Shown piece after piece: positions 1-18,890 of a stretch of DNA of 18,890 nt. This DNA comes from a virus (lineage: Duplodnaviria > Heunggongvirae > Uroviricota > Caudoviricetes). The notes under the pieces are model-generated. The model had not been told where the DNA came from and ran no database searches. It saw nothing but the letters and a program-made list of their open reading frames with translations. The stretch lies in the IMG/VR virus record IMGVR_UViG_3300017989_002952, positions 1 through 18,890 of that record. One strand, 5' to 3'. The first letter of the stretch is position 1. The number at the start of each line of letters is the position of its first letter. A program made the position numbers and the translations under genes.

Positions 1-1
1 A

Positions 2-3000
2 GCATTTGTGAGATCTGGAAATACAATGTACTGTTACATTGATGGAGTGAGACAAGACGCTGGACAAACATTCACAGGCACAGTTTATAATAATTCTAGC
101 GAATACATGTACGTCGGTGCACTGTATTACAATAGTGCAACATCTGATCACCTCAAAGGTTATTTGGACGAACTTAGAATTTCAGTGGGAACCGATAGAG
201 GTTGGACAGGTTCTACTATTACAGTTCCGACTTCTCCTTATGATGAGTTGACTTGGAATGATTTTGTGGTTTCAAGTGTTTCTGCAGACTTGACAATCGG
301 TCATGTTGAGTTGCTTGCAACGACTACAACTGTACAATCAAACGTGGCAGACGCCACTCTAGAACTTGGTGAGGCTGCAGATCTTTCAGGAACGATATCT
401 TTTAGTTCAACAACTAGCTCATTTATGATTCTCGGCACTACAGAAGTATTGTCAGCTACGGTTAATATAACTTCAGAAGTGGATGCAGAGCTGGCAGCAG
501 GTTTGTTAGAATCTCTGTCTGCTACAATTAACGTTGTGTCTAATCTCACTGCAGCTGTATTAACAATTGGTATCGCAACGCCGTTGTCTGCAACTTGTGC
601 AGTCATCTCGAATACATTTGCTAACTTAGAACTTGGTGTTGACGTACCCCTGTCTGGAACCGTAGGCATAACAAGTGAAGTAGATGCGGAAATTGAACTT
701 GGTATTGTTGAGATCTTAGCATCTACAGGTCCAATCACATCGGTTGTGACAGATACAGATTTAACTCTTGGTATTACAGAGGATTTGACATCCACACCAG
801 GAATTACAACAGAAGTTGATGCATTTATTGACCTGGGTGTTTCTGAACAACTCTCTGCAACTACAAATGCAGTAGTGTTAACAACTGCCTCGATCGCGCT
901 TGGTGTGGTTGAGATTCTTGCTTCATCTGCAACCAACACATCTGTCACAGTTGGTTCTCTACAATTAGGACAGGGTGAAGATCTAGCAGGACCTTGTAAT
1001 ATCACAACAGAATGTGATGGTCTTCTCTCAATCGGTATTGCTGAGATCTTAGCATCAACATCTATTGGTACAGCTGTTGCTACTGCTAATTTGGGTTTTG
1101 GTGTAACAGAACCTCTAGAACATACGTTGTTTAGTGATGTGATCACAGGTGGTAATGATTCATATACAAAACTACTCCTCCACTTAGATGCTGACAGAGG
1201 AAATACGGGACACGCAATATACAACAATGGAAATGTAGTCCTTGATGCATCTACTATGAAGTTTGGTTCTGGTAGTTATGACTTTGATGGAAGTTCTTGT
1301 ATCGATGTTGTAGATCATGCTGACTGGGATTTTGCTTCAGGTAATTTTGTAATAGATGCATGGATCAAAACTGCTTCAGGATCTACAAGAACAATCGTTG
1401 GTCAGAATATCTCAGGTGGTGCTGACATATGGCACTGGAAATTGAAGAGTGATAATTCTCTCCAATTTGGTATAAGAGTAAGTAGTAGTTGGACCTTTAT
1501 CTTTAATCCAACGGGAACAACTGTTCCTAGTGATACATGGAGTCATGTAGCTGTTGTTAGAAGTGGTAATACATGGAACATGTACATTGATGGAACGAGA
1601 GTTGGACAAACTACATACTCTGGAAGTGTTCCAAATATCTCCGGACAACCCATGAGAATTGGTAGAGTATACGGTGAGCCAGACTTTGATGGTCAGATGG
1701 ACGAGTTCCGTATTTCTAAGGGAACTGATAGAGGTTGGACAGGAACATCATTTACTCCAGCAACTAGTGAATGGTCTTCAGACTCATATACAAAACTCTT
1801 GCTTCATATGAATGCTGATGACTCGGGTGAGAATCACAATGTTACATTATATGGTGATACAGCGCCTGCGCCAGGAAATACAAAATGGAACGGAGCATTC
1901 TACTTTGATGGGACTGGTGATTACATGACAGTTCCTGATAGTGATGACTGGGATTTATTTGGTGGAGATTTTGTTATAGATGCTCAACTAAATTTTGACG
2001 ACTACTCTAGTCATAGAGGAATTATAGGTCAGTATGTAGATGGTAACAACCAATGGGGTCTCTATTTACAATCAACTGGTGTTCTAGTTCTGTATGGAAT
2101 TAACGGCAGTACAAAATTCCATTATGAAGCATCATTTACAACTACAGGTTCATATGTGCATATAGCTATCGTAAAATCAGGTAGTAATTGCTACATGTTC
2201 GCAAATGGTTCTGCCCTCTCAGTTACCGCATATACGGCATTCAGCGCTATGAGCAATCTAGCTACTCCACTACAAATTGGAAGATATAGAACTTCTGATT
2301 ATATGAAGGGACATATTGACGAACTTCGTATTTCAAAAGGAACTGATAGAGGTTGGACAAGTAGCTTTACCGCACCACCCTCTCCATATGATGATTCAGA
2401 AGAGCAACAAGTAAGTTCTTGGTTAGTACAATCAGTTGTAGCTGGTGATATCACTCTTGGTGTTATTGAAGTGTTAACTGCTGAGTGTGTATGTTGGACT
2501 TCTATTTCTGGAAGTATAGCTCTTGGTGTTGTAGAAATTCTCGCATCTTCATCGACGACCGCATCTGTGGTTGATGCTGATCTTCATCTTGGTGAAGAGG
2601 TAGATGTGAGTGGTCCCTGTGCAGTTGTATCCAATGTAGCTGATACAACATTAACTCTCGGAACAACTGAGCTGCTTGCTTCAACAGCAGGATACGGAAA
2701 TGGTGCTCAAGCAGAATCTACAACAGCTGGTCTGTTATCAGTCGGTCTTGTTGAAATTCTTGCTGCGACATCTGTATACACTTCAATTGTACAAGCTGAT
2801 TTAATTATTGGTATTGATGAAGAATTAACTTCAACACCTCTAGCACAATCATCTACTAGTGGTGTATTGACTCTTGGTATTACAGAACCATTATCTGCTA
2901 CAAATGGAGTTGTTAGTGTCGTCAACGGTGACATAACTCTCGGCGCTGACGTTGTTGTTTCTTCTAGTGTTCTTGTACAAAGTGTTGCTAATGCAGGTCT

Positions 3001-5257: not shown

Positions 5258-8200
5258 TATGGCGAGAGATGATGTAGTTTTTCGTAATCGACTAAACGTA
5301 AAATGGCATCGTGATTTTAGAGCTTACCTTGTAAAATCTGATGTCAATACTGCGGTCGGTGCGGAACTCACACTTGGTACTACAGAGGTGTTGGAGGCGA
5401 CAGCTAGTGGTGTAGCTGCGGCTGTCGCCAATCTCACCCTTGGAGTAATTCATCCCATCTCAGGCGGTGTTATTTTAGCGTCCTCGACTGATGCTACATT
5501 AACACTCGGAGTGGTTGAAGTGCTCTCTGCATCCACATCCTTTACGTCCGAAGTAGACGGTTTTATAACTCTTGGTGTTGCTGTCGATCTCTCTGGTACA
5601 GCTTCTGCTATAACAAACATAACTGCGAGTCTCGAGTTTGGTGTTGTTGAGCTCCTTGGTGCTTCATCTTCTTCTGCATCAACAGTGGCATCTGAATTGA
5701 CTTTGGGCGTCACAGAGTTAATGACAACAACATCAGCAACCTCTTCGGAAGCCGATGCTCTATTAACTATCGGTGTATTTGAGCTTCTTGGGTCGTCCTC
5801 GACCACATCATCTGCAGTTGGTGGCGAGTTAATCCTTGGTATTACTGAGGAATTATCTGTGTCCGCTGGTGCTGTAGCTGACGCATCTGCTGATTTGAGT
5901 CTTGGAGCTGATACAGATCTTGAAGCAACTCATTTAGTTCAATCAAGCGTTCAAGCTTCTCTTGCTCTTGGTGTTGTTGAAGTTCTCGGTTCTTCATCCT
6001 CAACTGCATCTGTTATTGATGCTGGTCTCACATTGGGTATTGACGAGGTTTTATCAGCCTCTTCTGGTAGCAATTCTAATGTATCTGCGGACTTAACGCT
6101 AGGCGCAGACCAAGCTCTTTCCTCAACTGCTGTTATTGTATCGACGACTACAGCCTTATTAAGCCTTGGTGTTGTTGAAGTTCTCGGTTCTGCTGTAGTC
6201 ACCTCTTCCACAGTTGACGCTACCCTCACTCTTGGTATTGACGAAGTATTGTCTGCGACCATTACAGCACAATCTTCAATTAGTGCATTCTTAATTCTTG
6301 GTATAACAGAACCTCTAAGCGCCTCTACCGACTCCTCAACGTCTGTAACTGCTGATTTGACCATTGGTCACGTTGAACTTCTTGCTTCAACTGCTATCTC
6401 GGCTTCGGTTGTTGATGCTGATTTGGAGCTTGGTGCAGATACGGCCATTGGTGGTGGAGCTGCTGCTGGATCAGTTGTAACTGCTAATCTGTTTATTGGT
6501 CTGGTAGAGTTGCTTGGAGGTTCTGCTATCTCGGTGTCCATTACAGATGCAGAATTAACTCTTGGTATTGTTGAAGAACTATCAGCAACAACAGACCCAG
6601 AAGTCCAGATAAGTGGTATTGCAATACTTGGTACAACTGAACCTCTGTTCTCCGGTGTCGTGATTACAAGTGAATCTGATGCTCTCTTGGCAGTAGGTGT
6701 TGTTGAAATACTTGGTTCAACTGCTGTCACTTCTAGTACTGTAACTGGTGGTCTTGACCTTGGAGTTGTGACTTCCCTCTCCGCAACGGCGATTATACAG
6801 TCGTTCGTACAAACCCCTGTCTTGGTATTGGGTGTTACAGAACAACTGTCAGGGACGTCGTTTAGCTCGTCTGCTGCGGACGCAACAATAAGCACTGGAG
6901 TTATAGAAGTCCTCACAGCAGGATCTGCATGGGTATCTACCACATCCGCATCTGATTTAACTCTTGGACAGGGAGAAGACCTTACAAGTTCTCCGTTAGT
7001 CCAATCAGATGCAAATGCTTCTCTGCTACTTGGTGTTGCTGAGGATTTAAGTGCTACAACAGGTGGAACAAGCAATGTGACTGGGGAATTAACACTTGGT
7101 ATTGCAGTTGTGCTCTCTGCAACTTGTGCAGTCCAATCACTTGTTGATATTGCTACCCTCACAACTGGTGAGCCAGAATATCTCACGTCCACGTGTAGTA
7201 TCCAATCATCAACATTTGCTTCACTACTACTTGGTCAGGATGAGGTATTTACAGGAACCTCGACGATCCAATCAGACATACAAGGTCTCCTAATTACTGG
7301 TATTCTTGAGATACTAGCATCCAGTTCAATCTCAAATTCAGTTACAGTTTCTGACCTGGTTATTGGAACCGACGAAGTGTTAGAATCTACTCATTTGGTT
7401 ACGTCAAGTGTTAGTGGCTTCTTAATTCTTGGTGTTGATGTTCCATTATCAGGAACTATAAATGTACAATCTGCAACTATTTCTGATGCTGCTCTTGGTA
7501 TCAACGAATATATGTGGGGCGACTCTATTATTCAATCAGCTACTACAGTTGATCTCACATTAGGACATACTGAGAATTTAAAATCATATTGTGATCTACA
7601 GACAAATTGTGGTGGTCTGTTATCAGTAGGTGTTGTTGAAATACTCGCCTCTACAAATATAACATCATCCGCAACGGCTGCTGATTTAACTATAGGTATT
7701 GAGCATCCAATATCTGCTACCTCAGATTCTACTGCGAGCATAACTGCAATTCTAACATTGGGTGTTGAAACTGCAATTTCTGCAACTTGTGATGTTGTAA
7801 GTTATGCAGTTGCTGAACCTCTATGGTTGGGTGTAAGTGAGCTTCTCGCATCAACAAACATAACATCTTCAATAACAACTGCTGATCTAGGTCTTGGTGA
7901 ACCAGAACCATTATCTGCTACATGTAATGTTATATGTGAAGTAGATGCATTCGTCAATCTTGGTGTTGTTGAAGACTTGTCACACTCGCTTCTTGTTCAA
8001 TCTTATGTTGCACCTGCTGACACAGTGGTTGGTGGTCCAGTTTCTGTTAGTGCAATTAATGATGTTGAGTCGTATGCCATCGCCGACCTTGTAACAGGAG
8101 ATGCAGAAGAACTCTCTGGTAGTTGTACTATTACATCCGAAGCAGATTGTGGCATTTTCGTTCTACTTCTGGGAAATGGTTCCTCAAACCCAAAAGTGTT

Positions 8201-10580
8201 GGTCTATCCTTCTGAATTAACTCTCGGACAGGGTGAACTATTCTCAACATGGAACCCAGTTTATTCAAATGTTGTTGCCGATCTGAGTCTTGGTGGTGTT
8301 ATTGAGCTTACATCGATGCTCAAATGTAACGCAGTCTCAACATTGTCTGCACCACAGCTTATTACTGGAGAAGTTTTAGATCTCAGTTCTCAAGTTGACT
8401 GTACATCAGTAGTTCTAAATACTCTGGACCTTACTGTTGGTAATCTTGGTACAGGACTTTCAGAATCTGAGTCATACGCATGGGCAGTTGGTCTCTGGAT
8501 TGGAACTGTCGAGCAACTCTCTGCAACGGCATATCCTTCACCAAATGTCGCAACGACTGGTGTGTTGATTAATGCTGTTGACCTTAGCAGCACAGTATCA
8601 GCTGTTCTGACCATTACACCACTACTAGGGGTTGGTCCGGCGTTGTCTGCTGGAGCGGACGCAGTCTCTTCAGTAACAGCAGATCTAACAATCGGCGTCA
8701 TTACTGAATGTTCGGCTACTTGTGTGGTTGATTCTACAGCAGTAGCTGATACATTCGTGTTTGGTGCCCCTCAACAACTCGAAGCTACTTGTGATGTTGA
8801 ATCAAACACTGTTGCGTTCTTATTCACTGGAGAATTCGAGTTAATCTCAGCCACTTGTGACGTTCAGTCAAATGTTGGTGGTGCTTTACTAACAAACGTC
8901 CAAGAACTTTCAGCGGATTGTCAAGTAGACTCAACAGCGGTCGCTACGACATTGATCATACCAGGTGTTGGAGAAGACCTAGAAGGCTCTGCTAATGCTG
9001 TATCTTATGTTACAGGTGAACAGCTAATTATAGATTACATTGGTTTGTATGCATCTACAGATGTGACTTCAAATGTAGTTGCCAACCTCGAAATTGAACC
9101 AGAATTATCTGCTACAATCCTTGTCCAAAGTTATATCCCAACGCCGTATTTATGGACAGGAGAATCAGAGACTCTCGCAGGCACAATTTTAGTTCAATCA
9201 GATATATCTGATTGTGATCTAATACTTGGTGTTCTTGAACTTCTTGCTAGCTCGATCCTTGCTCCAGCAAGTTTTCCACCACCAGAGTTGACAATAGGAC
9301 AGACAGAGGATCTCGAATCTACACACTTCATTGAATCAATAGTGAGTTCCAACCTCACACTTGGAGTTTCTGAGGTTCTGACCAGTACAATCAATGTACA
9401 ATCGAATGTAACTGCTGATCTTGAACTTGGTATTGTTAGAGTCCTTGAATCCACAATTAATCTACAGTCAGTTGTAACGAACACTATCGACCTTGACATC
9501 GGACAAGTCGAGGTTATGGAAGGTAGTTGTTTTATCGAGAGTGTTGTTGATGACGGCTTGCTTGTTGGAGAACTCGAAGACTTATCCGCCACTTGTGATT
9601 GTATCTCAACTATAACGGCTGATATGTATGCGGGCGCTGTAGAACATATTACTAGCACGGTGTCCATCGTGTCAGTTGTAGGACCTGTAGATGTCGATTT
9701 TGGACAACCAGAAGACCTCTCAGGAACTGGTGGAATTCAATCTGTCATTACTGCTGCATTCACGCTAGGTGTAAGTGAGGGGCTTTCAGCAACTCAGGGT
9801 ATATACTCGACTGCAACTGCGACAACTCTAGACATTGGTGTTGCTGAGGTCCTTACATCAACTTGTCATATACAATCATTTGCAGAAGCACATCCGACTT
9901 ACGGAGTTGAAGAATCATTATCTGCTACAATATCTGTATCGTCTGATGTAGCAGACTCAACACTTATTCTCGGTGTTGTTACAGAACTTACAGCCACTGC
10001 AATTGCTGATTGCTTTGTAATTGGTTACTTAACAAGAGGTTACATTGGTTCTGCTTCTATTTATAGTGATGTTGCGGCAGACTTAACTATTGGAGCCGTT
10101 GAGGATCTCACTGGTACAGTTGCTTGTGATTCTACAGCAGTTGCAACAACGCTTGTGGTTGGTGGAGCAGAAGAGCTTACTGCCACTTGTTTTATCACAA
10201 CACAAATAGTTGATCCAGATCTCACATTTGGTGTTCCAGAAGAGCTTACTGCCACGGCTGTTTGTGATTCAACTGCAGTTGTTGCCACGATTGGTATTGA
10301 ATTTGAATGCAGAGGTGCTGCGTCTTGTGCTTCTTCAGTAGATGCGGACCTCATTCTTGGTATTATTACAGATCTTACAGCTACTTGTCAGATAGATTCA
10401 ACTGCTGTAGCTACAACTATCGATATTCCAGGTGTCGCAGAGCCAATGGAAGGTTCTGCTGACGCAACCTCAAATGTTGCTGCAACTCTTACACTTGGTT
10501 ATGAATTGGAGCAGCTGTCTGGAACTTGTGATTGTACATGCACTATAATTAACGCAGCAATTGAGATTGGTGTTGCCTTA
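281..10580 (+). repeat. Coding tandem repeat of about 22-23 aa, consensus ADLTLG(I/V)xExL(S/A)(A/S)Txxx(x)SxV, shared by both giant ORFs
   Basis: Visible throughout both translations. The exact 27-mer cttggtgttgttgaagttctcggttct occurs at 5967-5993 and 6165-6191, 198 nt (3 x 22 aa) apart. Confidence 0.9.
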
Positions 10581-11159
10581 GGCAGACGAAGAACTACTTA
10601 TGATTTACAATATTGGTTCGCAGAATATGTAAGAACCAGTAGAATGAACAAGGCAGAATTTTCTTTTACCGCAAAAGACAGGAGACACTTTCAACAAAAA
10701 TCATTTATAGAGTTATTATTTAATGATGAATATTCGGAGACTTCATATAGATATCTATACAGGGAGGAAACTGAAAGACACTTGTGGCCGGTGCCTGTTA
10801 GAACAAGATTGATGATTCGCCCAAGTTCAGCACAATTCTTTGTGTGTGATAATGATAGTACAGCAGTTTGTGATGTGAATTTGTATGGGTTAGGATCTGA
10901 TGATATTGTTATGCTTGACAGACTTCTTGTTTATCGATTGGAGCCACACAATGCAACTCTTGTAGGCCTTGATTATGAATCCTTAACTTCGACCTTGTCC
11001 AAACTGATTTATATGTATTTAGAGCTTAAATTGCATAATGATTGGTCGAGGTATGATCATGAATCTTTGATTTCAGCATCAACTGATTTATTGGAACAGA
11101 TGTATGAATCATACTTACAAGAGAACATTTTTAGAACCGTCGCAGAAAGAGGGATTTAA
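5259..11159 (+). CDS. 1966-aa repeat fibre-like structural protein with a ~190-aa non-repetitive C-terminal domain
   Basis: ATG lies 1 nt after the upstream stop. About 1750 aa are the 22-aa repeat, followed by a globular, aromatic-rich domain from about 10581. It sits directly upstream of the baseplate-like gene. Confidence 0.8.
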   Translation: MARDDVVFRNRLNVKWHRDFRAYLVKSDVNTAVGAELTLGTTEVLEATASGVAAAVANLTLGVIHPISGGVILASSTDATLTLGVVEVLSASTSFTSEVDGFITLGVAVDLSGTASAITNITASLEFGVVELLGASSSSASTVASELTLGVTELMTTTSATSSEADALLTIGVFELLGSSSTTSSAVGGELILGITEELSVSAGAVADASADLSLGADTDLEATHLVQSSVQASLALGVVEVLGSSSSTASVIDAGLTLGIDEVLSASSGSNSNVSADLTLGADQALSSTAVIVSTTTALLSLGVVEVLGSAVVTSSTVDATLTLGIDEVLSATITAQSSISAFLILGITEPLSASTDSSTSVTADLTIGHVELLASTAISASVVDADLELGADTAIGGGAAAGSVVTANLFIGLVELLGGSAISVSITDAELTLGIVEELSATTDPEVQISGIAILGTTEPLFSGVVITSESDALLAVGVVEILGSTAVTSSTVTGGLDLGVVTSLSATAIIQSFVQTPVLVLGVTEQLSGTSFSSSAADATISTGVIEVLTAGSAWVSTTSASDLTLGQGEDLTSSPLVQSDANASLLLGVAEDLSATTGGTSNVTGELTLGIAVVLSATCAVQSLVDIATLTTGEPEYLTSTCSIQSSTFASLLLGQDEVFTGTSTIQSDIQGLLITGILEILASSSISNSVTVSDLVIGTDEVLESTHLVTSSVSGFLILGVDVPLSGTINVQSATISDAALGINEYMWGDSIIQSATTVDLTLGHTENLKSYCDLQTNCGGLLSVGVVEILASTNITSSATAADLTIGIEHPISATSDSTASITAILTLGVETAISATCDVVSYAVAEPLWLGVSELLASTNITSSITTADLGLGEPEPLSATCNVICEVDAFVNLGVVEDLSHSLLVQSYVAPADTVVGGPVSVSAINDVESYAIADLVTGDAEELSGSCTITSEADCGIFVLLLGNGSSNPKVLVYPSELTLGQGELFSTWNPVYSNVVADLSLGGVIELTSMLKCNAVSTLSAPQLITGEVLDLSSQVDCTSVVLNTLDLTVGNLGTGLSESESYAWAVGLWIGTVEQLSATAYPSPNVATTGVLINAVDLSSTVSAVLTITPLLGVGPALSAGADAVSSVTADLTIGVITECSATCVVDSTAVADTFVFGAPQQLEATCDVESNTVAFLFTGEFELISATCDVQSNVGGALLTNVQELSADCQVDSTAVATTLIIPGVGEDLEGSANAVSYVTGEQLIIDYIGLYASTDVTSNVVANLEIEPELSATILVQSYIPTPYLWTGESETLAGTILVQSDISDCDLILGVLELLASSILAPASFPPPELTIGQTEDLESTHFIESIVSSNLTLGVSEVLTSTINVQSNVTADLELGIVRVLESTINLQSVVTNTIDLDIGQVEVMEGSCFIESVVDDGLLVGELEDLSATCDCISTITADMYAGAVEHITSTVSIVSVVGPVDVDFGQPEDLSGTGGIQSVITAAFTLGVSEGLSATQGIYSTATATTLDIGVAEVLTSTCHIQSFAEAHPTYGVEESLSATISVSSDVADSTLILGVVTELTATAIADCFVIGYLTRGYIGSASIYSDVAADLTIGAVEDLTGTVACDSTAVATTLVVGGAEELTATCFITTQIVDPDLTFGVPEELTATAVCDSTAVVATIGIEFECRGAASCASSVDADLILGIITDLTATCQIDSTAVATTIDIPGVAEPMEGSADATSNVAATLTLGYELEQLSGTCDCTCTIINAAIEIGVALGRRRTTYDLQYWFAEYVRTSRMNKAEFSFTAKDRRHFQQKSFIELLFNDEYSETSYRYLYREETERHLWPVPVRTRLMIRPSSAQFFVCDNDSTAVCDVNLYGLGSDDIVMLDRLLVYRLEPHNATLVGLDYESLTSTLSKLIYMYLELKLHNDWSRYDHESLISASTDLLEQMYESYLQENIFRTVAERGI

Positions 11160-11181
11160 ACCATAGAGAGGAGATAAAACC

Positions 11182-12966
11182 GTGTTTACACCAGATGATT
11201 TTTGGAGAATTTTTAGAGTTCTGAAAGATCCGACTGACGTAGATTCTCGATTAGATCCAAACACGAAAATTTTAGCCGAATCTGAACAACAAACATCTAA
11301 ACAATTCTTCTTAAACACATTAGACCAAACTGCACACCTTACTGATGACTACAAAAGATTGAGAGACTTCTTAGTTGATTGGTATGCTTCACACAAGACT
11401 ATTACGTCTACACAAAAATCCATCACAGACGTCTACTCTCTGCCTTCTGAGCATGTAAGTGAGCTTATTCGCAGTTTTGGTTTTACATACGGTTTAAACC
11501 TTGTTCCTCTCACAAATAAAGTAAATATGTTTTTGGATCTGGTAAACCTTTATAAGAAGAAGGGCACGCCAGAAGCAATGGCGGACATTCTTGACTATTA
11601 TGGTTTCTCTGACGCAGACATTATTGAATACTGGTTAGTCAAAGATCAATTTGGAAACCTAGTATTCAGAGGTCATAATGTTCGTCGTTCCGCAAGTGGT
11701 AGTACAGCTCTATTAGATGAAGATGTAGCCTTTGACACAATGACTGAATTTGATCCTCACTGGCTTTTGACAGAGGCTCAAATCCACAATTTAATTGCTA
11801 ATAATAAAATCAACCTACCTTCAAAGAGTCCGTTTTTCTCACTAAGTTCTGTGTTCTCAATGAGAAAACTCGAGTCTGCTATGGCGATTATGTCTCGAAT
11901 TGTTCAAGATGAATATGAGAGGTATTTTGTAAACGGACTGTCGCTTGCACAAAATTTACAGATTAGAGGAATTGGGTGGTCTGCCTCATTATTGGAAGTT
12001 TATCTTGCTTGTATCTATTGTTTTGAAAAATTGTTTGGAACAATGTCAGGAACAAGCGACCTTCGGTATTTATGTTATGATGGGACGGTAGAATACAATA
12101 CAGACGATCCTCCTTCACCAATAAATTTAGACACACTCGTTACTGAGTATGAGAATCTTGTGACTGATGCGCCAACGAATAGAGATGATAGAACAACTCG
12201 ATTAGCAACATTTGAAGCAAATTGGACAAGGGATTTGTCTACGAACATTTTTGATTCGAGCGCCTATGTTGCAGCCACTCTTTTAAATACAATCAATCCG
12301 TCGTTAAAAGCTGAGTGTGACTCATGGTTCGTACAGAATCAAGAGGACTTCTTAATTTCTTATTTGATCGGGACATTAGACAATTGGACTAGGACTAGAA
12401 TTGATACACAGACACCAAGTCTTGTCGTCACGATCTTAGGTTTTGGATTCCGAGAAGAGGTTAGTAAGATTATAGAATTCTTTAAACCATATCGTGCAAG
12501 ACTTGCGTTCCTCGATACGGCTTATGCAATTAGGAATCCATTAACTGAATCCATTAGGTTAGACAGTGCTTTAGAACAGACAAACATTGAGCAAAGCCAC
12601 ATTGACAATGTAAATGTCCATGACGATGATCATTTGGACATGCAGCTAGACTACTCGTTCTATGACAATGTCACAGCAATGGATTGTGCTGGAACAACCC
12701 ACGTTGGTTATGACAGAGGCGGTTTTTATGATGAAGCGTTAATGTTCTGTGATCTTTTAGATATTGTCACAGGCCAGGTTTTTGATGGTCTTGATACTGT
12801 CAATGTTACAGACGACTTCTCTGTTGGGTTCCCAATGACTTTCGAAGACTTTCCAAGGGGTTACGGACCCCCAGCACAGATGGATTCAGGAAATACCTAC
12901 GATCAACTATTACAATCCCCAATCGTGGATGATCGTGATCATTTAGAAATTGTTTCCATCCCATAA
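11182..12966 (+). CDS. Putative baseplate wedge / tail protein I-like subunit (594 aa)
   Basis: GTG start with SD agagaggag. The motif FLDLVNLYKKKGTPEAMADILDYYG resembles the LYxxKGT signature of P2 gpI / T4 gp7-like baseplate proteins. Acidic C-terminus; structural gene context. Confidence 0.6.
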   Translation: MFTPDDFWRIFRVLKDPTDVDSRLDPNTKILAESEQQTSKQFFLNTLDQTAHLTDDYKRLRDFLVDWYASHKTITSTQKSITDVYSLPSEHVSELIRSFGFTYGLNLVPLTNKVNMFLDLVNLYKKKGTPEAMADILDYYGFSDADIIEYWLVKDQFGNLVFRGHNVRRSASGSTALLDEDVAFDTMTEFDPHWLLTEAQIHNLIANNKINLPSKSPFFSLSSVFSMRKLESAMAIMSRIVQDEYERYFVNGLSLAQNLQIRGIGWSASLLEVYLACIYCFEKLFGTMSGTSDLRYLCYDGTVEYNTDDPPSPINLDTLVTEYENLVTDAPTNRDDRTTRLATFEANWTRDLSTNIFDSSAYVAATLLNTINPSLKAECDSWFVQNQEDFLISYLIGTLDNWTRTRIDTQTPSLVVTILGFGFREEVSKIIEFFKPYRARLAFLDTAYAIRNPLTESIRLDSALEQTNIEQSHIDNVNVHDDDHLDMQLDYSFYDNVTAMDCAGTTHVGYDRGGFYDEALMFCDLLDIVTGQVFDGLDTVNVTDDFSVGFPMTFEDFPRGYGPPAQMDSGNTYDQLLQSPIVDDRDHLEIVSIP

Positions 12967-13014
12967 GAGATACGTTCTCTACGAATATCAATGGGTTACA
13001 TTCTACCTTCGCGC

Positions 13015-13030
13015 AGAACATATATTAAAT
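13015..13030 (+). promoter_or_regulatory. Candidate phage promoter motif AGAACA-N5-TAAAT (copy 1)
   Basis: agaaca tatat taaat lies in the intergenic gap before the phosphoesterase; the same motif with the same spacing occurs at 16504-16519. Confidence 0.4.
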
Positions 13031-13067
13031 ATCCTGTGTTTAATAACCCGCATAGAGAGGTATGAAT

Positions 13068-14306
13068 ATGCCAGCTGCTAAGTATCCAGGATTAAAAAAA
13101 TGGGTAAAGAACAAACTAATAGAAGGAGCAAGACCAGGAGATATTTATGAAACTGCAGTTAGGCGGTTTCGTTATGAAAATTCGCAAGATCAATTTGGAC
13201 ATTATTGTAGAGGAGTAAGGAGAACAGAAAAACTCCCACCAGCAGGACCCGCCAACCAATACACCAACGGAAATGGACACACTGAAGAACCAGTTGACGA
13301 AGATGCGGCGTTATTCCTGGCTGCTGTCCAGAATAAGAAACAGGTTGAGGTCCTAGCATTATGTGAGCAATTAGATTGCAAACCCAAGCAAATATTTGAA
13401 TATGTTGAATACTTTAGAACAAAAGGTGTTGAACTATCACTACAAAGCGGTGTTATCTTTTTCAACACTTCAGCACCAGCAGCAGTTGAACCAGTGTCTC
13501 AAATTGCTGAGACTGAGATTGTCTTTGGTGTAGCTTCTGATTTACATTTTGGATCAAAACATTGTCAAATAACTGCTCTAAATACCTTCTGTGAGATATG
13601 TAAAAAGAAGGGAGTTAAACACATGTTCTCACCTGGAGATGTAGTAGCAGGTTACAATGTTTATCCTGGTCAACAGTTTGATGTTTATGCTTTATCAGCT
13701 CAAGAACAAGAATCATCAGTTGTAACAAATTTACCAACAGGTTTTGAGTGGTATCTGCTTGGTGGAAACCATGATTATGCTTTTATTAAAAGAGGTGGTG
13801 GACATAACCCAGTCTTGTCTATTGCATCTCAAAGAGAAGACTGCCATTATGTTGGTTTCGATCAGGCAATTATTCCTATACTCAACGGTGTTGATTTATC
13901 TATGTGGCACCCAAGTGGAGGCGTCCCTTATTCGGTCTCATATCGACTCCAAAAGGGTGTAGAACAGATCGCATATAGTGAACTCACCAATATCGTTCGA
14001 GGAGTTAAAGACAAACCCACCATAAGATTTATCCTTTCAGGTCATTTACATATTCAAATGCAAGCATTGTTTGGGAGTATTTTTGGTTGTCAGTGCGGTA
14101 CATTTGAAGGACAAACAAATTACTTGCAGCGAAAAAACCTTGTCCCAAATATTGGTGGTTATATTATTAAAGCTGAGCTTGGTAGAAACGGTTTACTAAG
14201 AAACTTTGAAGCTAAATTTTATGTATTTGAAGAAGTTGAGGACGACTGGAAAAACTATAGACATTCAGTAATCTCACCAAAAATAGAGAAGCCAGTTTTT
14301 GCATAA
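13068..14306 (+). CDS. Calcineurin-like metallophosphoesterase with an N-terminal putative winged HTH (412 aa)
   Basis: All five motifs are present: SDLHFG, PGDVVAG, GGNHD, WHPSGG, SGHLH. ATG 13068 is 7 nt from SD agagagg; ATG 13062 is an alternative start. Confidence 0.9.
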   Translation: MPAAKYPGLKKWVKNKLIEGARPGDIYETAVRRFRYENSQDQFGHYCRGVRRTEKLPPAGPANQYTNGNGHTEEPVDEDAALFLAAVQNKKQVEVLALCEQLDCKPKQIFEYVEYFRTKGVELSLQSGVIFFNTSAPAAVEPVSQIAETEIVFGVASDLHFGSKHCQITALNTFCEICKKKGVKHMFSPGDVVAGYNVYPGQQFDVYALSAQEQESSVVTNLPTGFEWYLLGGNHDYAFIKRGGGHNPVLSIASQREDCHYVGFDQAIIPILNGVDLSMWHPSGGVPYSVSYRLQKGVEQIAYSELTNIVRGVKDKPTIRFILSGHLHIQMQALFGSIFGCQCGTFEGQTNYLQRKNLVPNIGGYIIKAELGRNGLLRNFEAKFYVFEEVEDDWKNYRHSVISPKIEKPVFA

Positions 14307-14307
14307 C

Positions 14308-14331
14308 AAAAATGGGGACCTCCTATCCCCA
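14308..14331 (-). terminator. Intrinsic terminator of the leftward operon
   Basis: Stem tgggga (14313-18) / tcccca (14326-31), followed on the minus strand by TTTTT; it sits at a convergent gene junction. Confidence 0.65.
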
Positions 14332-14508
14332 AGGTTTAAGCAATCTTTGCGCTGCGTCAAACCCAAACTCACGGGTGACCAGCACAAAGATTGCTTGCAT
14401 TATTGAAAGTTTAGCGGCTTCAGAGGTATGACTTGGATGATTGTCTGCATACTGAAGAGCTCGCGCTAATTGACTAATCATTGTTTTGTCATCGTGTGAC
14501 GTTTTCAT
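14323..14508 (-). CDS. Hypothetical protein (61 aa)
   Basis: ATGA overlap with the upstream stop (14505-14508) indicates translational coupling. Confidence 0.65.
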   Translation of the reverse strand: MKTSHDDKTMISQLARALQYADNHPSHTSEAAKLSIMQAIFVLVTREFGFDAAQRLLKPWG

Positions 14509-15344
14509 ATTGGTGATGGTATCCCCTCTCGGTTACAGAAGTTGATGAGGTCGTCTTCAGTAATACTAGAGTTCGGGTTAGTTTTGATGGTTCCGGCTCT
14601 GTGCATTCCAAGTTGTATCCATTCATGTGGATAATACTTATGAAATTTATCCAGTATTTCTTTCGCGGATTCTGGACTTATTGGAGGATTACAACCCTTA
14701 GCAACATCATCAAAACTCCCTGTTGTAACGAATATATTCAGAAACGCCGCAATTGTAATACCCAACTCACCTACAGCATTCTCATCCCCAACTCCAAAAT
14801 ATTTCTCGATAAATTTATCCTTTTCCTTTTGTTTAACACGTTTATTGAGGATGTAATGCAAGGTCCCTTTTGAGGAAATTCCGAATTTCTCCATCGTAAG
14901 ATCATAAGATCGACATTTCTGATAGAACGATCTCACCTCATCATTGTCGTACTTCTTGAGATGAGACGCCGCATTTTTAGAGCACCGTTTGTGGGTCTCT
15001 TCACCTTTAAGTTGTTCACTTTCTTTGAAGGTCATCAACTCGATGTTACTCTTTCGAATATTCATTGGATTGCTATCAAGATGACGTATAACCAAGTTCG
15101 GATCGAAAATTTTGTCTCCAAACTTTTGGTACGCAGATAGCTTTCCAGCCTCGACCTTCAAGTGTTCTCTGTTTGGTCCACGAACAGAGAATCTAGGGTT
15201 ATAGTTTTTACCGGAAGCGTTTAACCTCAACTTTTTACCGGTAACACCAATCACATCATTACCAACTACTCGATATCCTTTTTCATAGGCGAGTAGTAGA
15301 GCTTTCACCGCCTTACTCGGTTTTGTCTGGTCGCTTTGGTACAT
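14505..15344 (-). CDS. HNH (HNH_3 / I-HmuI-like) endonuclease-derived protein, probably inactive, fused to a C-terminal HTH-like domain (279 aa)
   Basis: ATG 15344 with SD GGAGGTG (the track's TTG start overlaps the SD). Contains the KLSAYQKFG...VIRHLDSNPMNIRKSNI HNH core, an HTH-like SYDLTMEKFGISSKGTLHYIL, and a ~100-aa extra C-terminal domain. Confidence 0.75.
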   Translation of the reverse strand: MYQSDQTKPSKAVKALLLAYEKGYRVVGNDVIGVTGKKLRLNASGKNYNPRFSVRGPNREHLKVEAGKLSAYQKFGDKIFDPNLVIRHLDSNPMNIRKSNIELMTFKESEQLKGEETHKRCSKNAASHLKKYDNDEVRSFYQKCRSYDLTMEKFGISSKGTLHYILNKRVKQKEKDKFIEKYFGVGDENAVGELGITIAAFLNIFVTTGSFDDVAKGCNPPISPESAKEILDKFHKYYPHEWIQLGMHRAGTIKTNPNSSITEDDLINFCNREGIPSPI

Positions 15345-15549
15345 TGTGTTCACCTCCAATATGTATCATTTCTAGTACAACTTCGTCAAAATCTACCATA
15401 ACATCATCAATCGTAGGAACCGGTTGGCCGCTTTCCTTCAATCGACTTTCAAACTTTTTCCGAAAGTCATCCAGATATTCTATCAACATCTTCTGGATAC
15501 CTTCTTGATATTTTCGCCATGCTTCACTCGACATGTCCAAAATGTTCAT
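15313..15549 (-). CDS. Hypothetical protein (78 aa)
   Basis: ATG 15549 with SD AAAGGAG, 2 nt after the upstream stop; starts MNILDMSSEAW. Confidence 0.7.
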   Translation of the reverse strand: MNILDMSSEAWRKYQEGIQKMLIEYLDDFRKKFESRLKESGQPVPTIDDVMVDFDEVVLEMIHIGGEHNVPKRPDKTE

Positions 15550-15551
15550 AA

Positions 15552-16445
15552 TTATTTCTCCTTTTGATGTAGTTGAATTATCTCTGCTGGTTTTGGTGGA
15601 AAGAAGTTTTTCCATGCTTCTGGAAAATCATTCTCAAGTTTTATCAAAAGTTTCTTAACCCTTGAGCCACTGATAACTGGAGTACATACTCGACCTGTTG
15701 GTGCATATTTTCCAGTATCTTTGTATACCTTCAGGAAATCAGTGATCGAAATTCCAAGAGTTCCGTTTTTACCAAAAGTTTGAGCTGCCCATGTCATCTT
15801 CTTAATCTTCTCTCTTTCGGCTTCAACTTCTGCAACATTCTTGATGCTGGCGCTAGTCAACTTAGCTTTTGGTAAATTCAAACTTTCATACTCATAGTAG
15901 AGGTCAGTAACCCGAATACACTCAACAAAACTTCCTAGAAATGAGTAGACGTTCTGTAATAGCTTACTGATAAGATGTACTATACACCAGTTAAAGTGTG
16001 TAGCATCTTCCTTTCTCCAGGTTGTGCTTTCATTCCTAAGAATACCGTCTATATGGTTTACACGAAAGATCCTATTATCTGGTTCTGAGTACATTGACTT
16101 ACCACCGCTGAAACGTAGCCAATCATGATCAATAGGATCTGGAATCGAGACACATAAATGATCTACGGGCGACCATTCTAAAACCAAGTTGTTCTTACTA
16201 GTAAGATACAGAAAGAAGTACGCCTTGGGTTTTCGACGATGACCATATTCATCATACAATTTTTCAAGATTCCAGTTAGAAGGGTTCAGTAACTCATATA
16301 CTCCTTGATTTCCTTGCCACTCAACAAGCTCATCGACTACACTGTCGATTATTTGAACACAGTAGTCGTTCCAACCTTCTTCAATGTTAGTAATACTTCT
16401 TATTTTCAGAACTTCGTCCTGCGCCATTCTTATTAATTCATGCAT
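15552..16445 (-). CDS. Hypothetical protein (297 aa) with a C-terminal HTH-like domain
   Basis: ATG 16445 with SD AAAGGAG. Its C-terminal 49 aa are paralogous to the C-terminus of the HNH fusion. Confidence 0.75.
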   Translation of the reverse strand: MHELIRMAQDEVLKIRSITNIEEGWNDYCVQIIDSVVDELVEWQGNQGVYELLNPSNWNLEKLYDEYGHRRKPKAYFFLYLTSKNNLVLEWSPVDHLCVSIPDPIDHDWLRFSGGKSMYSEPDNRIFRVNHIDGILRNESTTWRKEDATHFNWCIVHLISKLLQNVYSFLGSFVECIRVTDLYYEYESLNLPKAKLTSASIKNVAEVEAEREKIKKMTWAAQTFGKNGTLGISITDFLKVYKDTGKYAPTGRVCTPVISGSRVKKLLIKLENDFPEAWKNFFPPKPAEIIQLHQKEK

Positions 16446-16503
16446 ATTTATTTCTCCTTTCATACAATAGATTGTTTCGAGCTCGTTTAATAATATATAT
16501 AGT

Positions 16504-16519
16504 AGAACAAACTATAAAT
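16504..16519 (+). promoter_or_regulatory. Candidate phage promoter motif AGAACA-N5-TAAAT (copy 2)
   Basis: agaaca aacta taaat lies in the divergent intergenic region, about 75 nt before ATG 16593. Confidence 0.4.
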
Positions 16520-16539
16520 GGCTCACTGTTTTAACCTAA

Positions 16540-16573
16540 ACCGACTTTAAATCATTCTAAGATCTTAGTCGGT
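16540..16573 (+). promoter_or_regulatory. Possible 5' UTR stem-loop / operator
   Basis: accgact (16540-46) pairs with agtcggt (16567-73); a perfect 12-bp palindrome ctaagatcttag lies at 16557-68, just upstream of SD aaggagg. Confidence 0.35.
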
Positions 16574-16592
16574 GATCTTGAAGGAGGAAAAC

Positions 16593-17465
16593 ATGGTGTA
16601 CAGCAGTCAATTTGTCGCAGTAGTAAAGTGTAATGGTAAAGTCCTTCGTGAAAGAAGTGACGTAGTAACCCTTCCATTTGGTGCTGAATATTCCCTTCTT
16701 TTAAAGAATCTCTCACCACGTAAGGCGTCCGTCAATGTTAGTATTGATGGTCAGGACGTTCTGTACGGAAATTCTCTTATCATCGACCCAAATTCTGAGA
16801 CTGAATTAAAAGGTTTTCTTGATGGGATGACAGTCCGTCATCGCTTTAAGTTCATTCAGAAAACCAAACAAATTCAGCAACATAGAGGGGATAAACTTGA
16901 CGATGGAATAATTCGTATCCAATATGCTTTTGAAGAGCAACGAGTCATCAAGAGAAAGACTATCCTTCATGAGCATCACAAACATGAACACCACCATCAT
17001 CACCATCATAGAAAAACCCATTGGTATAATTATGACTACTACCCACCACTATTTTCTGATAGTAAAGGAGTGGGTTGGGATGATAGTGGGAATGTCTACG
17101 GTTCTTCTGATCAGCTCGTAGGTTCTTCGTTGACATGTAACTCTGGTGGCAGAGGTTTAGAAGGTGAAGTATCTAATTGCTTCTATTCAAATGTCTGTGA
17201 AGATTCTCTTGACGATGCTCCATTGGACGATGAAGGAATCACTGTCCAAGGATCCCAAACCAGACAAGATTTTCATTATGATACTATTGGTAAACTTGAG
17301 CCTTCTCAAGTTATTATTTTAAGACTCAGAGGTCAGACTTCAGGTGGAACAAAAGTTAGTAAACCTGTTACAGTCAAAACTAAATTTCAGTGTCCCACTT
17401 GTGGAACAAGGTCAGGTTCACGAGCCAGATTTTGCGCTCAATGTGGAACTAACTTAGAAATCTAA
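16593..17465 (+). CDS. Hypothetical protein (290 aa) with a beta-rich N-terminal domain, a His-rich tract and a C-terminal zinc ribbon
   Basis: ATG 16593 with SD aaggagg. HEHHKHEHHHHHHH at 16968-17009; CPTCG...CAQCG at 17391-17447. Confidence 0.85.
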   Translation: MVYSSQFVAVVKCNGKVLRERSDVVTLPFGAEYSLLLKNLSPRKASVNVSIDGQDVLYGNSLIIDPNSETELKGFLDGMTVRHRFKFIQKTKQIQQHRGDKLDDGIIRIQYAFEEQRVIKRKTILHEHHKHEHHHHHHHRKTHWYNYDYYPPLFSDSKGVGWDDSGNVYGSSDQLVGSSLTCNSGGRGLEGEVSNCFYSNVCEDSLDDAPLDDEGITVQGSQTRQDFHYDTIGKLEPSQVIILRLRGQTSGGTKVSKPVTVKTKFQCPTCGTRSGSRARFCAQCGTNLEI

Positions 17466-17497
17466 ACAAAAAATAAACAGTGATCCATTTCATGAGT

Positions 17498-17530
17498 TGT
17501 GGGGAGTCCTTTTGAGACTCCCCACATTTC
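17498..17530. terminator. Strong hairpin, probable bidirectional terminator
   Basis: Perfect 11-bp stem tgtggggagtc / gactccccaca with a 7-nt loop, followed by tttc on the + strand. It lies between the zinc-ribbon gene and the array. Confidence 0.75.
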
Positions 17531-17537
17531 GTCCGTA

Positions 17538-18426
17538 AATCCACAGTATTCCATAAATTTCTGTCGCTCAGGAACGCATTACACAAAACTCTAAGATTAA
17601 TTTGACCCCACAGAATCGTGTAAAACACTACGTTAGTGTTTCCCAACATATCCAATGTGTTCTTATCAATTTCTATTGGAAGTTTTACGGGACGGTTCTC
17701 TTTTTGACAAATCATCATAGGTTCGGATCTCATCGAGCAATAATGTCAACAAAATCTGATCCCACATCACCGCATCTAAGCGTATCGAATTCTATCGTAC
17801 TCCACGGTATCGTGAACAACATAATACCACAATAAACCCAAATCCGTCACAATGTTTGAAGACCCATGCGATAAGATTAACTAGTGGACGACTTGTAATC
17901 GCACATTATTAAATCGAACAGGTTGTGATGTCACCCTATCGAATGGTAAGGTGCATGTTATAATACCACATCACACTACACCACACTCAAACGAAACCAA
18001 CATTATCGAACAGAAACCAACATTATGGAACGGAAGCCGATGTTATAATATTACAAGATGGATGCAAAAGTACCAAACAGCATCGCACCTAGTTATATAG
18101 AATCTAATTCTAAAGAACCTTATTAAAAGTTCCACGCCACTACGCACTACGACAAGATAAATGTTCGAATCGCTTCGAATTCTACGAAACATCAAAATGG
18201 AACGGAGTTGATTGGTTCCAAATCGATATGACGTTTTCACACATTATAGAACTGAATAATACACGTTATAAGATACAACAGCATTCGTTGCTTTGCGACA
18301 GGACTTTATCGGATCTTTTCGATTCGTATCGAATTGGATGTTGCATATCACGAGGTAATATCGCAACGCACCAGACGATATTGTATTTCATTGGATTGTT
18401 TGTAATACGTTGTCGCTTTAGACTTG
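17538..18426 (-). repeat. Cryptic pentamer array (AY+NNN on +, NNN+RT on -) in 12 blocks; candidate VIPR-like guide-RNA array
   Basis: Of 173 registered first positions, 142 are A, 23 T, 8 G and 0 C; 17955-18055 has 21 consecutive A at 5-nt spacing. All 11 register shifts are +2 (a 7-nt step). The repeat is seen directly; strand and RNA function are inferred. Confidence 0.9.
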
Positions 18427-18439
18427 ACGTAAGACAGGA

Positions 18440-18487
18440 TGGTTGGGAGGAGACCCAACCACCCCCAGCTAGGCTCCGTCTAGCCTA
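18440..18487 (-). other. Two GC-rich hairpins forming a putative array leader / processing signal
   Basis: tggttggg (18440-47) / cccaacca (18454-61) and taggct (18470-75) / agccta (18482-87), between the stop of the 99-aa ORF and the first array unit. Confidence 0.6.
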
Positions 18488-18784
18488 ACAACAGCAGGCA
18501 GCGAGCTTCTTTCGAAGACGCTCCCGATTTTTGTTTTCTTTCTCTTTCAGGTCAAGTTTACGAGAGTTGTTATGAACTCTTCCAAGAGAAGCGACGGCAT
18601 TTGCTCTTGGAATAATTGCGTCATCGTCAACCTTCACTGTCTTCTTCAGCATACATGCTACAGGGTCTAAAATCTTTTGCATTTTGTAATAACCTCCCTT
18701 TCTTAGTCCGCGTCTCGCTTTTCTCAACCTAGAGATCGCTTTGTTTCTTTCTGGCGTTAAGCCACGAATACCATATTTCTTCAT
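18485..18784 (-). CDS. Very basic small protein (99 aa), probable nucleic-acid-binding accessory protein of the array locus
   Basis: 29 of 99 residues are K or R. ATG lies 1 nt after the upstream TAA; the sequence ends AACCC. Confidence 0.65.
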   Translation of the reverse strand: MKKYGIRGLTPERNKAISRLRKARRGLRKGGYYKMQKILDPVACMLKKTVKVDDDAIIPRANAVASLGRVHNNSRKLDLKEKENKNRERLRKKLAACCC

Positions 18785-18785
18785 A

Positions 18786-18890
18786 TTAAGCCGCTTTCAA
18801 TTTTTTGGATATCACCCCACTCTTAACATTTACAAGCTCGATATGTTCAGGTGGACAGTTATACATTCCGAAATTCGCTCCGCGCCTAGC
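18786..18890 (-). CDS. C-terminal 34 aa of a gene entering from the right edge; candidate RAMP/Cas7-like (Vipr-like) effector
   Basis: Not in the ORF track. The minus strand from 18890 reads ARRGANFGMYNCPPEHIELVNVKSGVISKKLKAA*, then TAA-t-ATG into the next gene. RRGANFGMY loosely resembles a RAMP G-rich-loop end (R...GxFGxF); the identity is inference only. Confidence 0.4.
   Translation of the reverse strand, partial: ARRGANFGMYNCPPEHIELVNVKSGVISKKLKAA

Follow-up and report, generated by a model that had tools for sequence, protein, structure and literature searches.

What message could a phage carry in a gene-free stretch where every fifth base is constrained and other bases vary, and which protein would read it? 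This question is raised by a gap of 889 bases in the IMG/VR virus record IMGVR_UViG_3300017989_002952, of which positions 1 to 18,890 were analysed. This whole stretch of 18,890 nucleotides is referred to as the window. The array which fills the gap is quite probably the guide-RNA array of a divergent VIPR system, located together with its effector on an accessory island of an uncultured marine jumbo phage. VIPR systems were described only in 2026, as relatives of CRISPR which read DNA through a gapped code.

Layout of the five-base array

Autocorrelation of the 889-base gap against Markov-1 shuffles gave z = 6.0 at lag 5 and z = 5.3 to 3.8 at lags 10, 15, 20 and 25, and lag 4 was depleted. 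Across the 105.6-kb contig, a strong lag-5 zone is found in the array only. A single fixed register modulo 5 across the gap produced no signal. Using a five-state phase tracker and sliding windows on both strands, we delimited 12 in-register blocks, each of 60-107 nucleotides and 11-20 units. The register changes by +2 at each block joint (block phases 3,0,2,4,1,3,0,2,4,1,3,0), so that one unit per 11-20 is a heptamer. The elements of the array are the following:

17538 to 18420, minus strand: putative guide array, 12 blocks of T-NNN-R units (autocorrelation, phase tracking, unit statistics)
18420-18341, 18340-18263, 18262-18191, 18190-18128, 18127-18060, 18059-17953, minus strand: first six array blocks, in minus-strand order
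17952-17881, 17880-17814, 17813-17747, 17746-17681, 17680-17598, 17597-17538, minus strand: last six array blocks, in minus-strand order
17598 to 18341, minus strand: eleven 7-base joints with the loose consensus T-N-N-A-N-C-T and a register change of +2 (phase tracking)
About 18341/40, 18263/62, 18191/90, 18128/27, 18060/59, 17953/52, 17881/80, 17814/13, 17747/46, 17681/80 and 17598/97: positions of these joints

The unit is A-Y-N-N-N on the plus strand and T-N-N-N-R on the minus strand, where it will be called T-N1-N2-N3-R. The minus-strand T, a plus-strand A, occupies 135 of the 166 full units (81%), and plus-strand C never occurs at that position. The last base is a purine on the minus strand in 143 full units, with A in 89 (54%) and G in 54 (33%). 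Each of the three free positions holds 0.02-0.04 bits of information with near 25% per base, and their G+C content is 49.5% as compared with 39% for the phage.

An earlier note on this DNA had put the constrained base at 142 A, 23 T, 8 G and 0 C of 173, had described the next base as mostly a pyrimidine and the other three as freely varying, and had seen no long identical repeats. These points hold. If a register jump of +2 is permitted at the 11 joints and block-edge units are counted, the fixed position contains 144 A, 22 T, 9 G and 0 C of 175 on the plus strand, and the autocorrelation that the note proposed against shuffled controls is the one given above. Tandem Repeats Finder and a direct-repeat finder did not detect the array in window 17400-18890. 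Since both programs miss it, 'cryptic' is a fitting word.

Structured RNA is predicted at both ends of the array, and the guide blocks appear unstructured as RNA (folding z -0.6 and -0.9):

18421 to 18490, minus strand: leader from the stop codon of a 99-amino-acid gene to the first guide, predicted to fold into two strong hairpins of 8 and 12 pairs (-33.6 kcal/mol, z -4.3)
17480 to 17545, minus strand: hairpin of 12 pairs (17500-17527) which trails the array (-25.6 kcal/mol, z -4.4)

No U-run follows the leader hairpins, and the terminator scan shows no terminator-like site there. The trailing hairpin also stands directly after a convergent plus-strand gene (16572-17465). Rfam gave no match, either for the array or for the non-coding region upstream.

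The region has four promoter-like matches, all of them on the minus strand. Several guide ends at the seven-nucleotide joint have the minus-strand sequence TGTGG TATTA T.... in common (window 17806-17831, 17945-17970 and 18040-18055), and two of the four promoter-like matches overlap guide ends of this kind. The shared sequence may represent per-guide promoters or processing signals. The longest block (17953-18059, 20-21 units) contains a 20-nucleotide tandem duplication of four units at 17993-18035, which suggests that arrays grow via unit duplication followed by divergence. Two further records, L007 and L008 (loci other than the window are given such handles), are identical to the window, array included.

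The adjoining operon and its sister loci

Upstream of the array, on the same strand, lies a coupled operon encoding proteins of 351 and 99 amino acids. Together with the long adjoining intergenic region it forms a minimal two-gene locus:

Contig 19841-18786, minus strand: Vipr-like RAMP gene encoding protein P0001, 351 amino acids, with its last 35 codons in the window at 18786 to 18890 (translation)
18485 to 18784, minus strand: gene for P0002, a very basic, predicted helical protein of 99 amino acids, candidate vap or small subunit (translation; conserved partner)

The part of the RAMP gene located in the window encodes a glycine-rich loop, GAIGARRGANFG. An exhaustive search assembled 44 cluster representatives of the P0001 family, which have a common core of 250 residues and, near the C-terminus, the consensus GLGGRRxAGYGxW. 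Compared with the PDB, the family profile matches the glycine-rich loops of Csm4 and Csm3 with E 0.01-0.3, and RAMPs make up seven of its eight matches. The AlphaFold2 model of P0001 reached a predicted local distance difference test score (pLDDT) of 86 and a predicted template modelling score of 0.79. Among the 50 PDB matches listed by Foldseek, there are CRISPR effector entries only (best E 1.6e-5), most of them Csm3 or other Cas7-type chains. VIA-align gave a Z of 13.0 to Csm3, and its first 38 rows are all RAMPs. The model also matches viral RAMP-like proteins in BFVD and the ESM Atlas.

The closest relatives emerged from the 2.3 million AFDB clusters, in which the top five matches are A0A1F4YLN4, X1U2U4, A0A2D6XG06, A0A661D0E2 and A0A0F9A1L0 (E 3e-9 to 2e-5). 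These five rank above every CRISPR RAMP, and according to the text of the preprint they are the accessions on which the Vipr family was founded (10.64898/2026.04.26.720920). Judged by its predicted structure, P0001 has the RRM core, G-loop and thumb of a stand-alone Cas7-type RAMP of the Vipr clade. The expectation of a RAMP/Cas7-like gene near the array is thus borne out by the 351-amino-acid protein encoded just beyond the window, which is co-oriented with the minus-strand reading and closest to the founding Viprs.

Family databases are silent on both proteins: Pfam, PHROGs and PADLOC contain no family for either the 351- or the 99-amino-acid protein. A phmmer search of the PDB with the single 351-amino-acid protein retrieved nothing meaningful, and tblastn against cultured phages gave no match. 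The model of P0002, with three helices, is of poor quality (pLDDT 61). The small partners are homologous across four loci, and in L009, L010 and L013 proteins of 105-117 amino acids follow the RAMP gene.

The combination of a RAMP homologue (33-40% identity), a small protein and a five-nucleotide array was found in four other loci, namely L009, L013, L022 and L023. In L009, genes for 294 and 105 amino acids precede T-NNN-A units over about 0.8 kb, which form 13 guides; these are roughly 9-14 units long, in most cases 10-11, and two extra bases stand between them. L023 encodes 279 and then 121 amino acids, followed by 1.3 kb with 16 guides. The largest array belongs to L022, a 308-kb phage contig, where genes for 291 and 71 amino acids are followed by 3.3 kb with at least 54 (about 58) guides. 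It occupies the same genomic slot, between sheath-side genes and a convergent downstream gene, and its joint is TTCAYAA. In L013/L014, the array is located upstream of the RAMP gene. At the level of gene order, two further contigs show the matching arrangement followed by a gene-free 1.1-1.2 kb.

The T on the gene-sense strand is kept at 82-99% in all four downstream arrays, and the purine/A is looser. As the T is better kept on this strand in all of them, the orientation of the array relative to the operon is fixed. In L009 and L022, the last base of the unit is A in 69-74% and G in about 10%. The +2 register punctuation is common to the window, L009 and L022. The earlier note had suggested a search for the same locus in relatives with different variable bases, and the protein pair and its five-nucleotide array do recur in independent loci with unrelated variable bases.

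Some local features of these loci are worth mentioning. A repeated AT-rich, non-array element with TATAAT on the gene-sense strand breaks the 3.3-kb array of L022 twice (L022:7088-7178 and 7609-7700); these elements may be internal promoters which split the array into sub-arrays. Guides 35 and 44 of the same array (about 7352-7408 and 7936-7986) are near-duplicates, with TGA versus TGG at one triplet in the sense frame. In L013, no genes are called in 1-3100, and the AT-rich stretch 2200-2600 upstream of the array contains many copies of a repeat of about 20 nucleotides, ...TTTAACTTATATAAACAATTACAGAAC....

Proposed reading of the free bases, putative targets and competing explanations

The free bases were read as triplets N1N2N3 joined gaplessly, and code statistics were pooled over 99 guides. 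Three independent lines of evidence appear to agree on one reading frame. Of the 12 free-position differences between similar guide pairs, within and between arrays, 8 are found at N3.

Stop codons are depleted in antisense frame 1 only. Position-wise shuffles of the 99 guides predict 49 stops in this frame and 26 are observed; when N3 alone or whole triplets are permuted, 37-40 are expected (p about 0.002 pooled). The N3 permutation (p 0.002) indicates that N3 is linked to the neighbouring codons in such a way that stops are avoided. The depletion is significant in L022 alone (13 stops versus 20 expected, p 0.014) and has the same direction in the window, L009 and L023, the last being marginal (5 versus 5.4). 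Antisense frame 1 is open in 76 of the 99 guides, and all five interpretable guides are in that frame. Here, N2 and N1 correspond to codon positions 1 and 2, and N3 corresponds to the wobble base of the preceding codon.

Decoded guides match real genes of other elements. IMG/VR was searched with a seed derived from a pair of L009 and L022 guides, in which every N3 is free and 18 bases are specified. One contig matched, at a site within a minus-strand open reading frame (ORF) whose product has an HTH_17 (excisionase-type) domain; directly downstream of this ORF is a tyrosine integrase gene. The site is in exactly the predicted frame and spells KLGGSLFF. Of 30 contiguous bases, L009 guide 1 agrees with it at 26, and the four that differ all fall on N3. 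For an L023 guide which was not part of the seed, the best match in the 14.5-kb locus is the same HTH_17 site, in register, with 28 of 36 bases and 21 of 24 at N1N2. Going by these matches, the putative point of convergence for guides of three arrays (L009, L022 and L023) is a single excisionase-like gene with an integrase next to it. No match was obtained with two other seeds of 18 specified bases, and chance matches at this stringency are therefore rare.

A guide of the window leads to a second target class:

18191 to 18262, minus strand: guide 2, which in antisense frame 1 spells NGGCGHRWFTLDE, a zinc-ribbon knuckle motif (gapless triplet decode)

Guide 5 of L009 spells LVADGGCGHEWYT, identical to the motif of window guide 2 in seven of nine aligned residues, and six of the nine aligned codons differ solely by synonymous third-base changes. 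A degenerate seed for the motif was found in frame, as the second knuckle of a zinc-ribbon ORF of 76 amino acids, in two phage contigs, L025 and L026 (L026:4725-4955). A second guide-2 seed led to a zinc-ribbon ORF of 67 amino acids, L029:1654-1857, which reads LVEDGGCGHRWFTVE. The guide-2 seed has eight matches in metagenomes: several of these are due to chance, L029 clearly represents an in-frame homologue, and the motif is also present in L028 and L031, with a cysteine a short distance before it. Window guide 2 agrees with L029 at 24 of 28 N1N2 positions (86%) but at only 4 of 14 N3 positions, and for this reason L029 is considered a homologue of the target and not the target itself.

Over five guide-target pairs, mismatches number 8 at N1, 8 at N2 and 30 at N3, so that 30 of 46 are at N3. 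The matches at N1N2 are 21/22, 17/20 and 21/24 to L024 and 24/28 and 23/28 to L029. N3 matches at about 55-80% in the L024 group and at 29% against the distant homologue L029. At the level of sequence, these natural matches would conform to a reading of three nucleotides per unit, of which two are strict and the wobble base lies at the discontinuity. They suggest that N3 is read with tolerance. On balance we favour a gapless, wobble-tolerant antisense code. The target classes which can be named appear to be small DNA-binding regulators of other mobile elements, namely excisionase-type helix-turn-helix proteins and NrdR/Ogr-like zinc ribbons.

Further searches were negative. Matches of the guides to their own contig, with a skip of 0, 1 or 2, are at chance level and reveal no self-target; the loci of relatives and cross-targeting among the 99 guides are likewise at chance level. 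Exact 24-mers of guide 0, with skip 0 and skip 1, have no match in IMG/VR. Wobble-free seeds of window guides 2, 4, 6 and 10 have none in viral, metagenome and genome collections. The guide 5 seed retrieved low-complexity acidic repeats only, with free positions at chance level.

These observations lead to the following mechanistic proposal. The array would be transcribed together with the two-gene operon. One RAMP protomer would bind each unit and sequester the constant U and the purine, leaving the variable bases exposed, as the published Vipr does with GGY. N1 and N2 would pair with codon positions 2 and 1 of a coding target, and N3 would stand opposite the wobble of the preceding codon. 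Each five-nucleotide unit would thus read three target nucleotides without a gap, with wobble tolerated and with guides antisense to the coding strand. Since the base opposite the wobble is not fixed in the guide and tends to agree with it, the readout would be effectively gapless with wobble tolerance. The seven-base unit would place the next protomer out of register, so that one filament ends, the next one starts and the guides are delimited; it could equally be a cleavage site. When T-N1-N2-N3-R is mapped on Y-N-N-G-G, T would take the place of Y, N1N2 would be the pairing bases, N3 the first G and R the second G. For this mapping to be valid, the RNA would have to be the gene-sense (window minus) strand, a condition in line with the fixed co-orientation. 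The likely role, by analogy, would be the silencing of competing integrative elements or phages. The nameable targets are regulators of integrative elements and other phages, and therefore fit the published role of VIPR in mobile-element conflict.

Several points weigh against a VIPR guide array and its proposed code. The constant bases differ from GGY, NNNGG, YNNNG and NNNNG, with G at the last position in 33%. No conserved 3′ tail accompanies each guide, hairpins being located at the ends of the whole array only. An hhalign comparison of the family profile with the 195-amino-acid candidate Vipr of the Escherichia phage SUSP1 locus, a single-sequence target, showed no similarity. Promoter and terminator scans of the region remained at chance level, and no RNA run is among the public sequencing runs which contain the locus. 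As the two constant bases are almost self-complementary, the transcribed strand is inferred. In the 12 guides of the window alone, there are 2 stop codons versus 3.9 expected, which is not significant. No exact natural target was found for any window guide in viral, metagenome and genome collections. Lastly, L029 was found with a seed from window guide 2 itself, and outside the seed the N1N2 match is 6 of 10.

An alternative retains the locus and the ribonucleoprotein and changes the target. The antisense filament would form on messenger RNA (mRNA) and not on double-stranded DNA, where it would block translation or recruit decay. The guides appear uniformly antisense with a fixed codon register, whereas published VIPR targets both DNA strands. 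Moreover, the closest solved structures are the RNA-targeting Csm3 and Cmr4, and if both strands of the duplex were RNA, G-U pairing would account for three of the four mismatches which L009 guide 1 has at N3. However, the characterised Viprs all bind double-stranded DNA, a strand bias could also result from roadblock polarity on DNA, the operon includes no nuclease or signalling partner, and the guide-RNA strand is itself inferred. We regard an mRNA target as rather unlikely. It would be only a tentative suggestion, too, that the window belongs to a lineage combining all of the following: a gapless triplet code in which all three free bases are read, antisense and in one register, perhaps an mRNA target, long tail-less arrays (12 to about 58 guides) and a seven-base break.

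Could the array, alternatively, be a periodic scaffold which nucleates or titrates the RAMP or another multimer, as a packaging, origin or decoy element whose variable bases drift? The constant positions alone would suffice for protein binding, and the array sits between convergent genes with hairpins on both sides. However, the variable positions are near 25% each and about 10 points above the G+C of the phage, they hold codon-frame information with in-frame matches to real genes, and unrelated arrays share sequence at the amino-acid and not at the nucleotide level. A scaffold is accordingly very improbable. A decaying pentanucleotide microsatellite or other non-functional simple sequence, to which the recurring units (TTCGA seven times, TNCGA frequently) and the 20-nucleotide local duplication might point, is hardly credible. 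Decay would erode the five positions alike, but two of them are conserved here and the other three have maximal entropy. In addition, the regular +2 punctuation recurs in independent loci, and arrays of this kind accompany a single protein family whose members are 33-40% identical.

Genomic setting and comparison with known systems

The window forms the first 18.9 kb of the 105.6-kb IMG/VR contig. CheckV estimates a completeness of 26%, and the contig is therefore a fragment of a very large phage. The locus is present in marine sediment and seawater metagenomes. The array sits between convergent units, with a plus-strand zinc-ribbon gene on the left and the minus-strand operon on the right; tail sheath and virion genes follow just right of the window. 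Contig positions 17484-20875 constitute a variable island, which is empty in one relative and occupied by a ParB-like gene in another. Contigs of a second strain from the same samples diverge completely from 17473 on, at the island edge; its zinc-ribbon gene (L001:783-1674, window 16582-17473) is about 80-88% identical.

The neighbouring genes and non-coding stretches can be listed as follows:

16572-17465, plus strand: 297-amino-acid protein with a C-terminal zinc ribbon and a histidine-rich run, HEHHKHEHHHHHHHRKTH; the family neighbours the sheath module in related large phages
14505-15359, minus strand: 284-amino-acid ORF with weak HNH endonuclease matches (Pfam E 9e-4, PHROG E 7e-5), probably a homing-endonuclease-like gene
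2-5257 and 5259-11159, plus strand: adjacent very large ORFs of at least 1751 and of 1966 amino acids, followed by a 594-amino-acid virion-structural-like protein and a 414-amino-acid calcineurin-like phosphoesterase, in the same order as in the relative L020
Contig 19842-20875 (L002:1842-2875): about 1 kb rich in G+C and devoid of genes, upstream of the RAMP gene and within the island

Two of these were considered as parts of the system. The zinc-ribbon protein was rejected, since it belongs to a family of over 1,000 members, which is also kept in relatives without the island. The upstream 1-kb structured RNA region was dropped as a source of vrRNAs: stretch 19842-20875 shows no five-nucleotide rhythm, and Rfam gave no match for it. 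In a related phage, a similar non-coding stretch, also rich in G+C and about 0.7 kb long (L017:3597-4293), adjoins a ParB-like gene in this slot; the two phages are homologous again from 20876 on.

A class 1 CRISPR-Cas locus would be recognised by long direct repeats (about 24-40 nucleotides) and cas genes. Tandem Repeats Finder and the direct-repeat finder detected no CRISPR-like repeats or spacers in window 17400-18890. No cas gene was found among ten flanking ORFs compared with Pfam and PHROGs, nor among four compared with PADLOC, which gave no defence hidden Markov model match either. The neighbours are phage structural or unknown genes. The resemblance to CRISPR effectors concerns the protein: like the Cas7-family backbone (Csm3, Cmr4, Csf2 and type VII Cas7), P0001 has an RRM core, a glycine-rich loop and a predicted thumb hairpin, and its proposed mode of action, in which each protomer covers a set number of guide nucleotides and bases are flipped out periodically, would be the same. 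In contrast, the period is 5 nucleotides here and 6 in Cas7 CRISPR effectors, and the array region contains no CRISPR repeats.

What would follow if the VIPR reading is true? The window and its four sister loci would combine a Vipr fold with another constant motif (U...R), a free wobble-facing base, head-to-tail guides and an apparently fixed strand. Programmable five-base guides could then be designed under wider rules, with three informative bases per unit, no protospacer-adjacent motif and long multiplexed arrays, and 99 natural guides would be available for testing the reading rule. Marine jumbo phages would aim at excisionase-type and zinc-ribbon regulators, and VIPR would be an inter-element weapon beyond enterobacterial phages. 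Should the gapless or mRNA reading be true, VIPR would comprise a second, distinct reading rule and target type.

The published systems provide the frame for this comparison. According to the preprint's text, VIPR consists of a small RAMP, usually one accessory gene, and vrRNAs of 9-16 YNNGG units with a structured tail; NN pairs with the target, every third base, usually the codon wobble, is skipped, and targets are found on both DNA strands with no self-targets (10.64898/2026.04.26.720920). The earlier note had given this outline (a RAMP with RNAs of GGY/NN pentamers that read gapped targets in competing phages), in agreement with the same text. Vipr structures show one protomer per unit, with GGY flipped into protein pockets and one target base extruded per unit (10.64898/2026.04.26.720927). 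Seven types are distinguished, with NNNGG, YNNNG and NNNNG as alternative units and with staggered tail-less and ribozyme-separated arrays, as far as the preprint's text describes them (10.64898/2026.04.26.720920). A later preprint reports 21 clusters and motifs with three fixed and two free bases, GAC/NN, CAC/NN, WGT/NN and TGH/NN (10.64898/2026.10.21.760802).

The most instructive counterpart is the type II VIPR of SUSP1, for which the published texts describe Vipr, vap1 and four vrRNAs (10.64898/2026.04.26.720920, 10.64898/2026.04.26.720927, 10.64898/2026.10.15.759431); we confirmed its locus and YNNGG arrays in KT454805.2. Both loci are phage-borne two-gene operons with a single RAMP and adjoining arrays of five-base units with fixed and hypervariable positions, roughly 9-16 units to a guide. 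Neither has self-targets. As in SUSP1, the window array would read three target nucleotides per unit in codon register, with the wobble at the discontinuity, and its targets would be regulators of rival integrative elements.

The differences are equally clear. The earlier note had already seen that GG is not conserved and had proposed a divergent variant or a parallel system, and the constant part is indeed U...R (A more than G) here and GGY in SUSP1. The base at the G1 position is variable here and appears to track the target wobble, with no evident skipped base. Guides are separated by seven nucleotides in the window and have no tail of about 40 nucleotides or pseudoknot each. There are 12 of them, and about 58 in L022, as compared with 1-4 in SUSP1, and they appear antisense only. 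The RAMP is also larger, with a core of about 250-290 amino acids and a lysine-rich N-terminal extension versus about 180-200 amino acids.

Among the published alternatives, the YNNNG units, as the text gives them, share the layout of a pyrimidine followed by three free bases and a purine, and likewise stand beside a Vipr-like fold; their G is relaxed here to R, mostly A. The lack of separate tails is a feature in common with the staggered arrays mentioned in the legend of fig. S18 (10.64898/2026.04.26.720920). The published VIPR texts, supplementary tables and figures excepted, contain no reading rule for units with three free bases, no seven-nucleotide punctuation and no jumbo-phage arrays of this length. 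What the present locus adds is the U...R motif, the seven-nucleotide punctuation and jumbo-phage arrays of up to about 58 guides, and within the classification set out in the preprint's text its lineage may be one of the seven published VIPR types.

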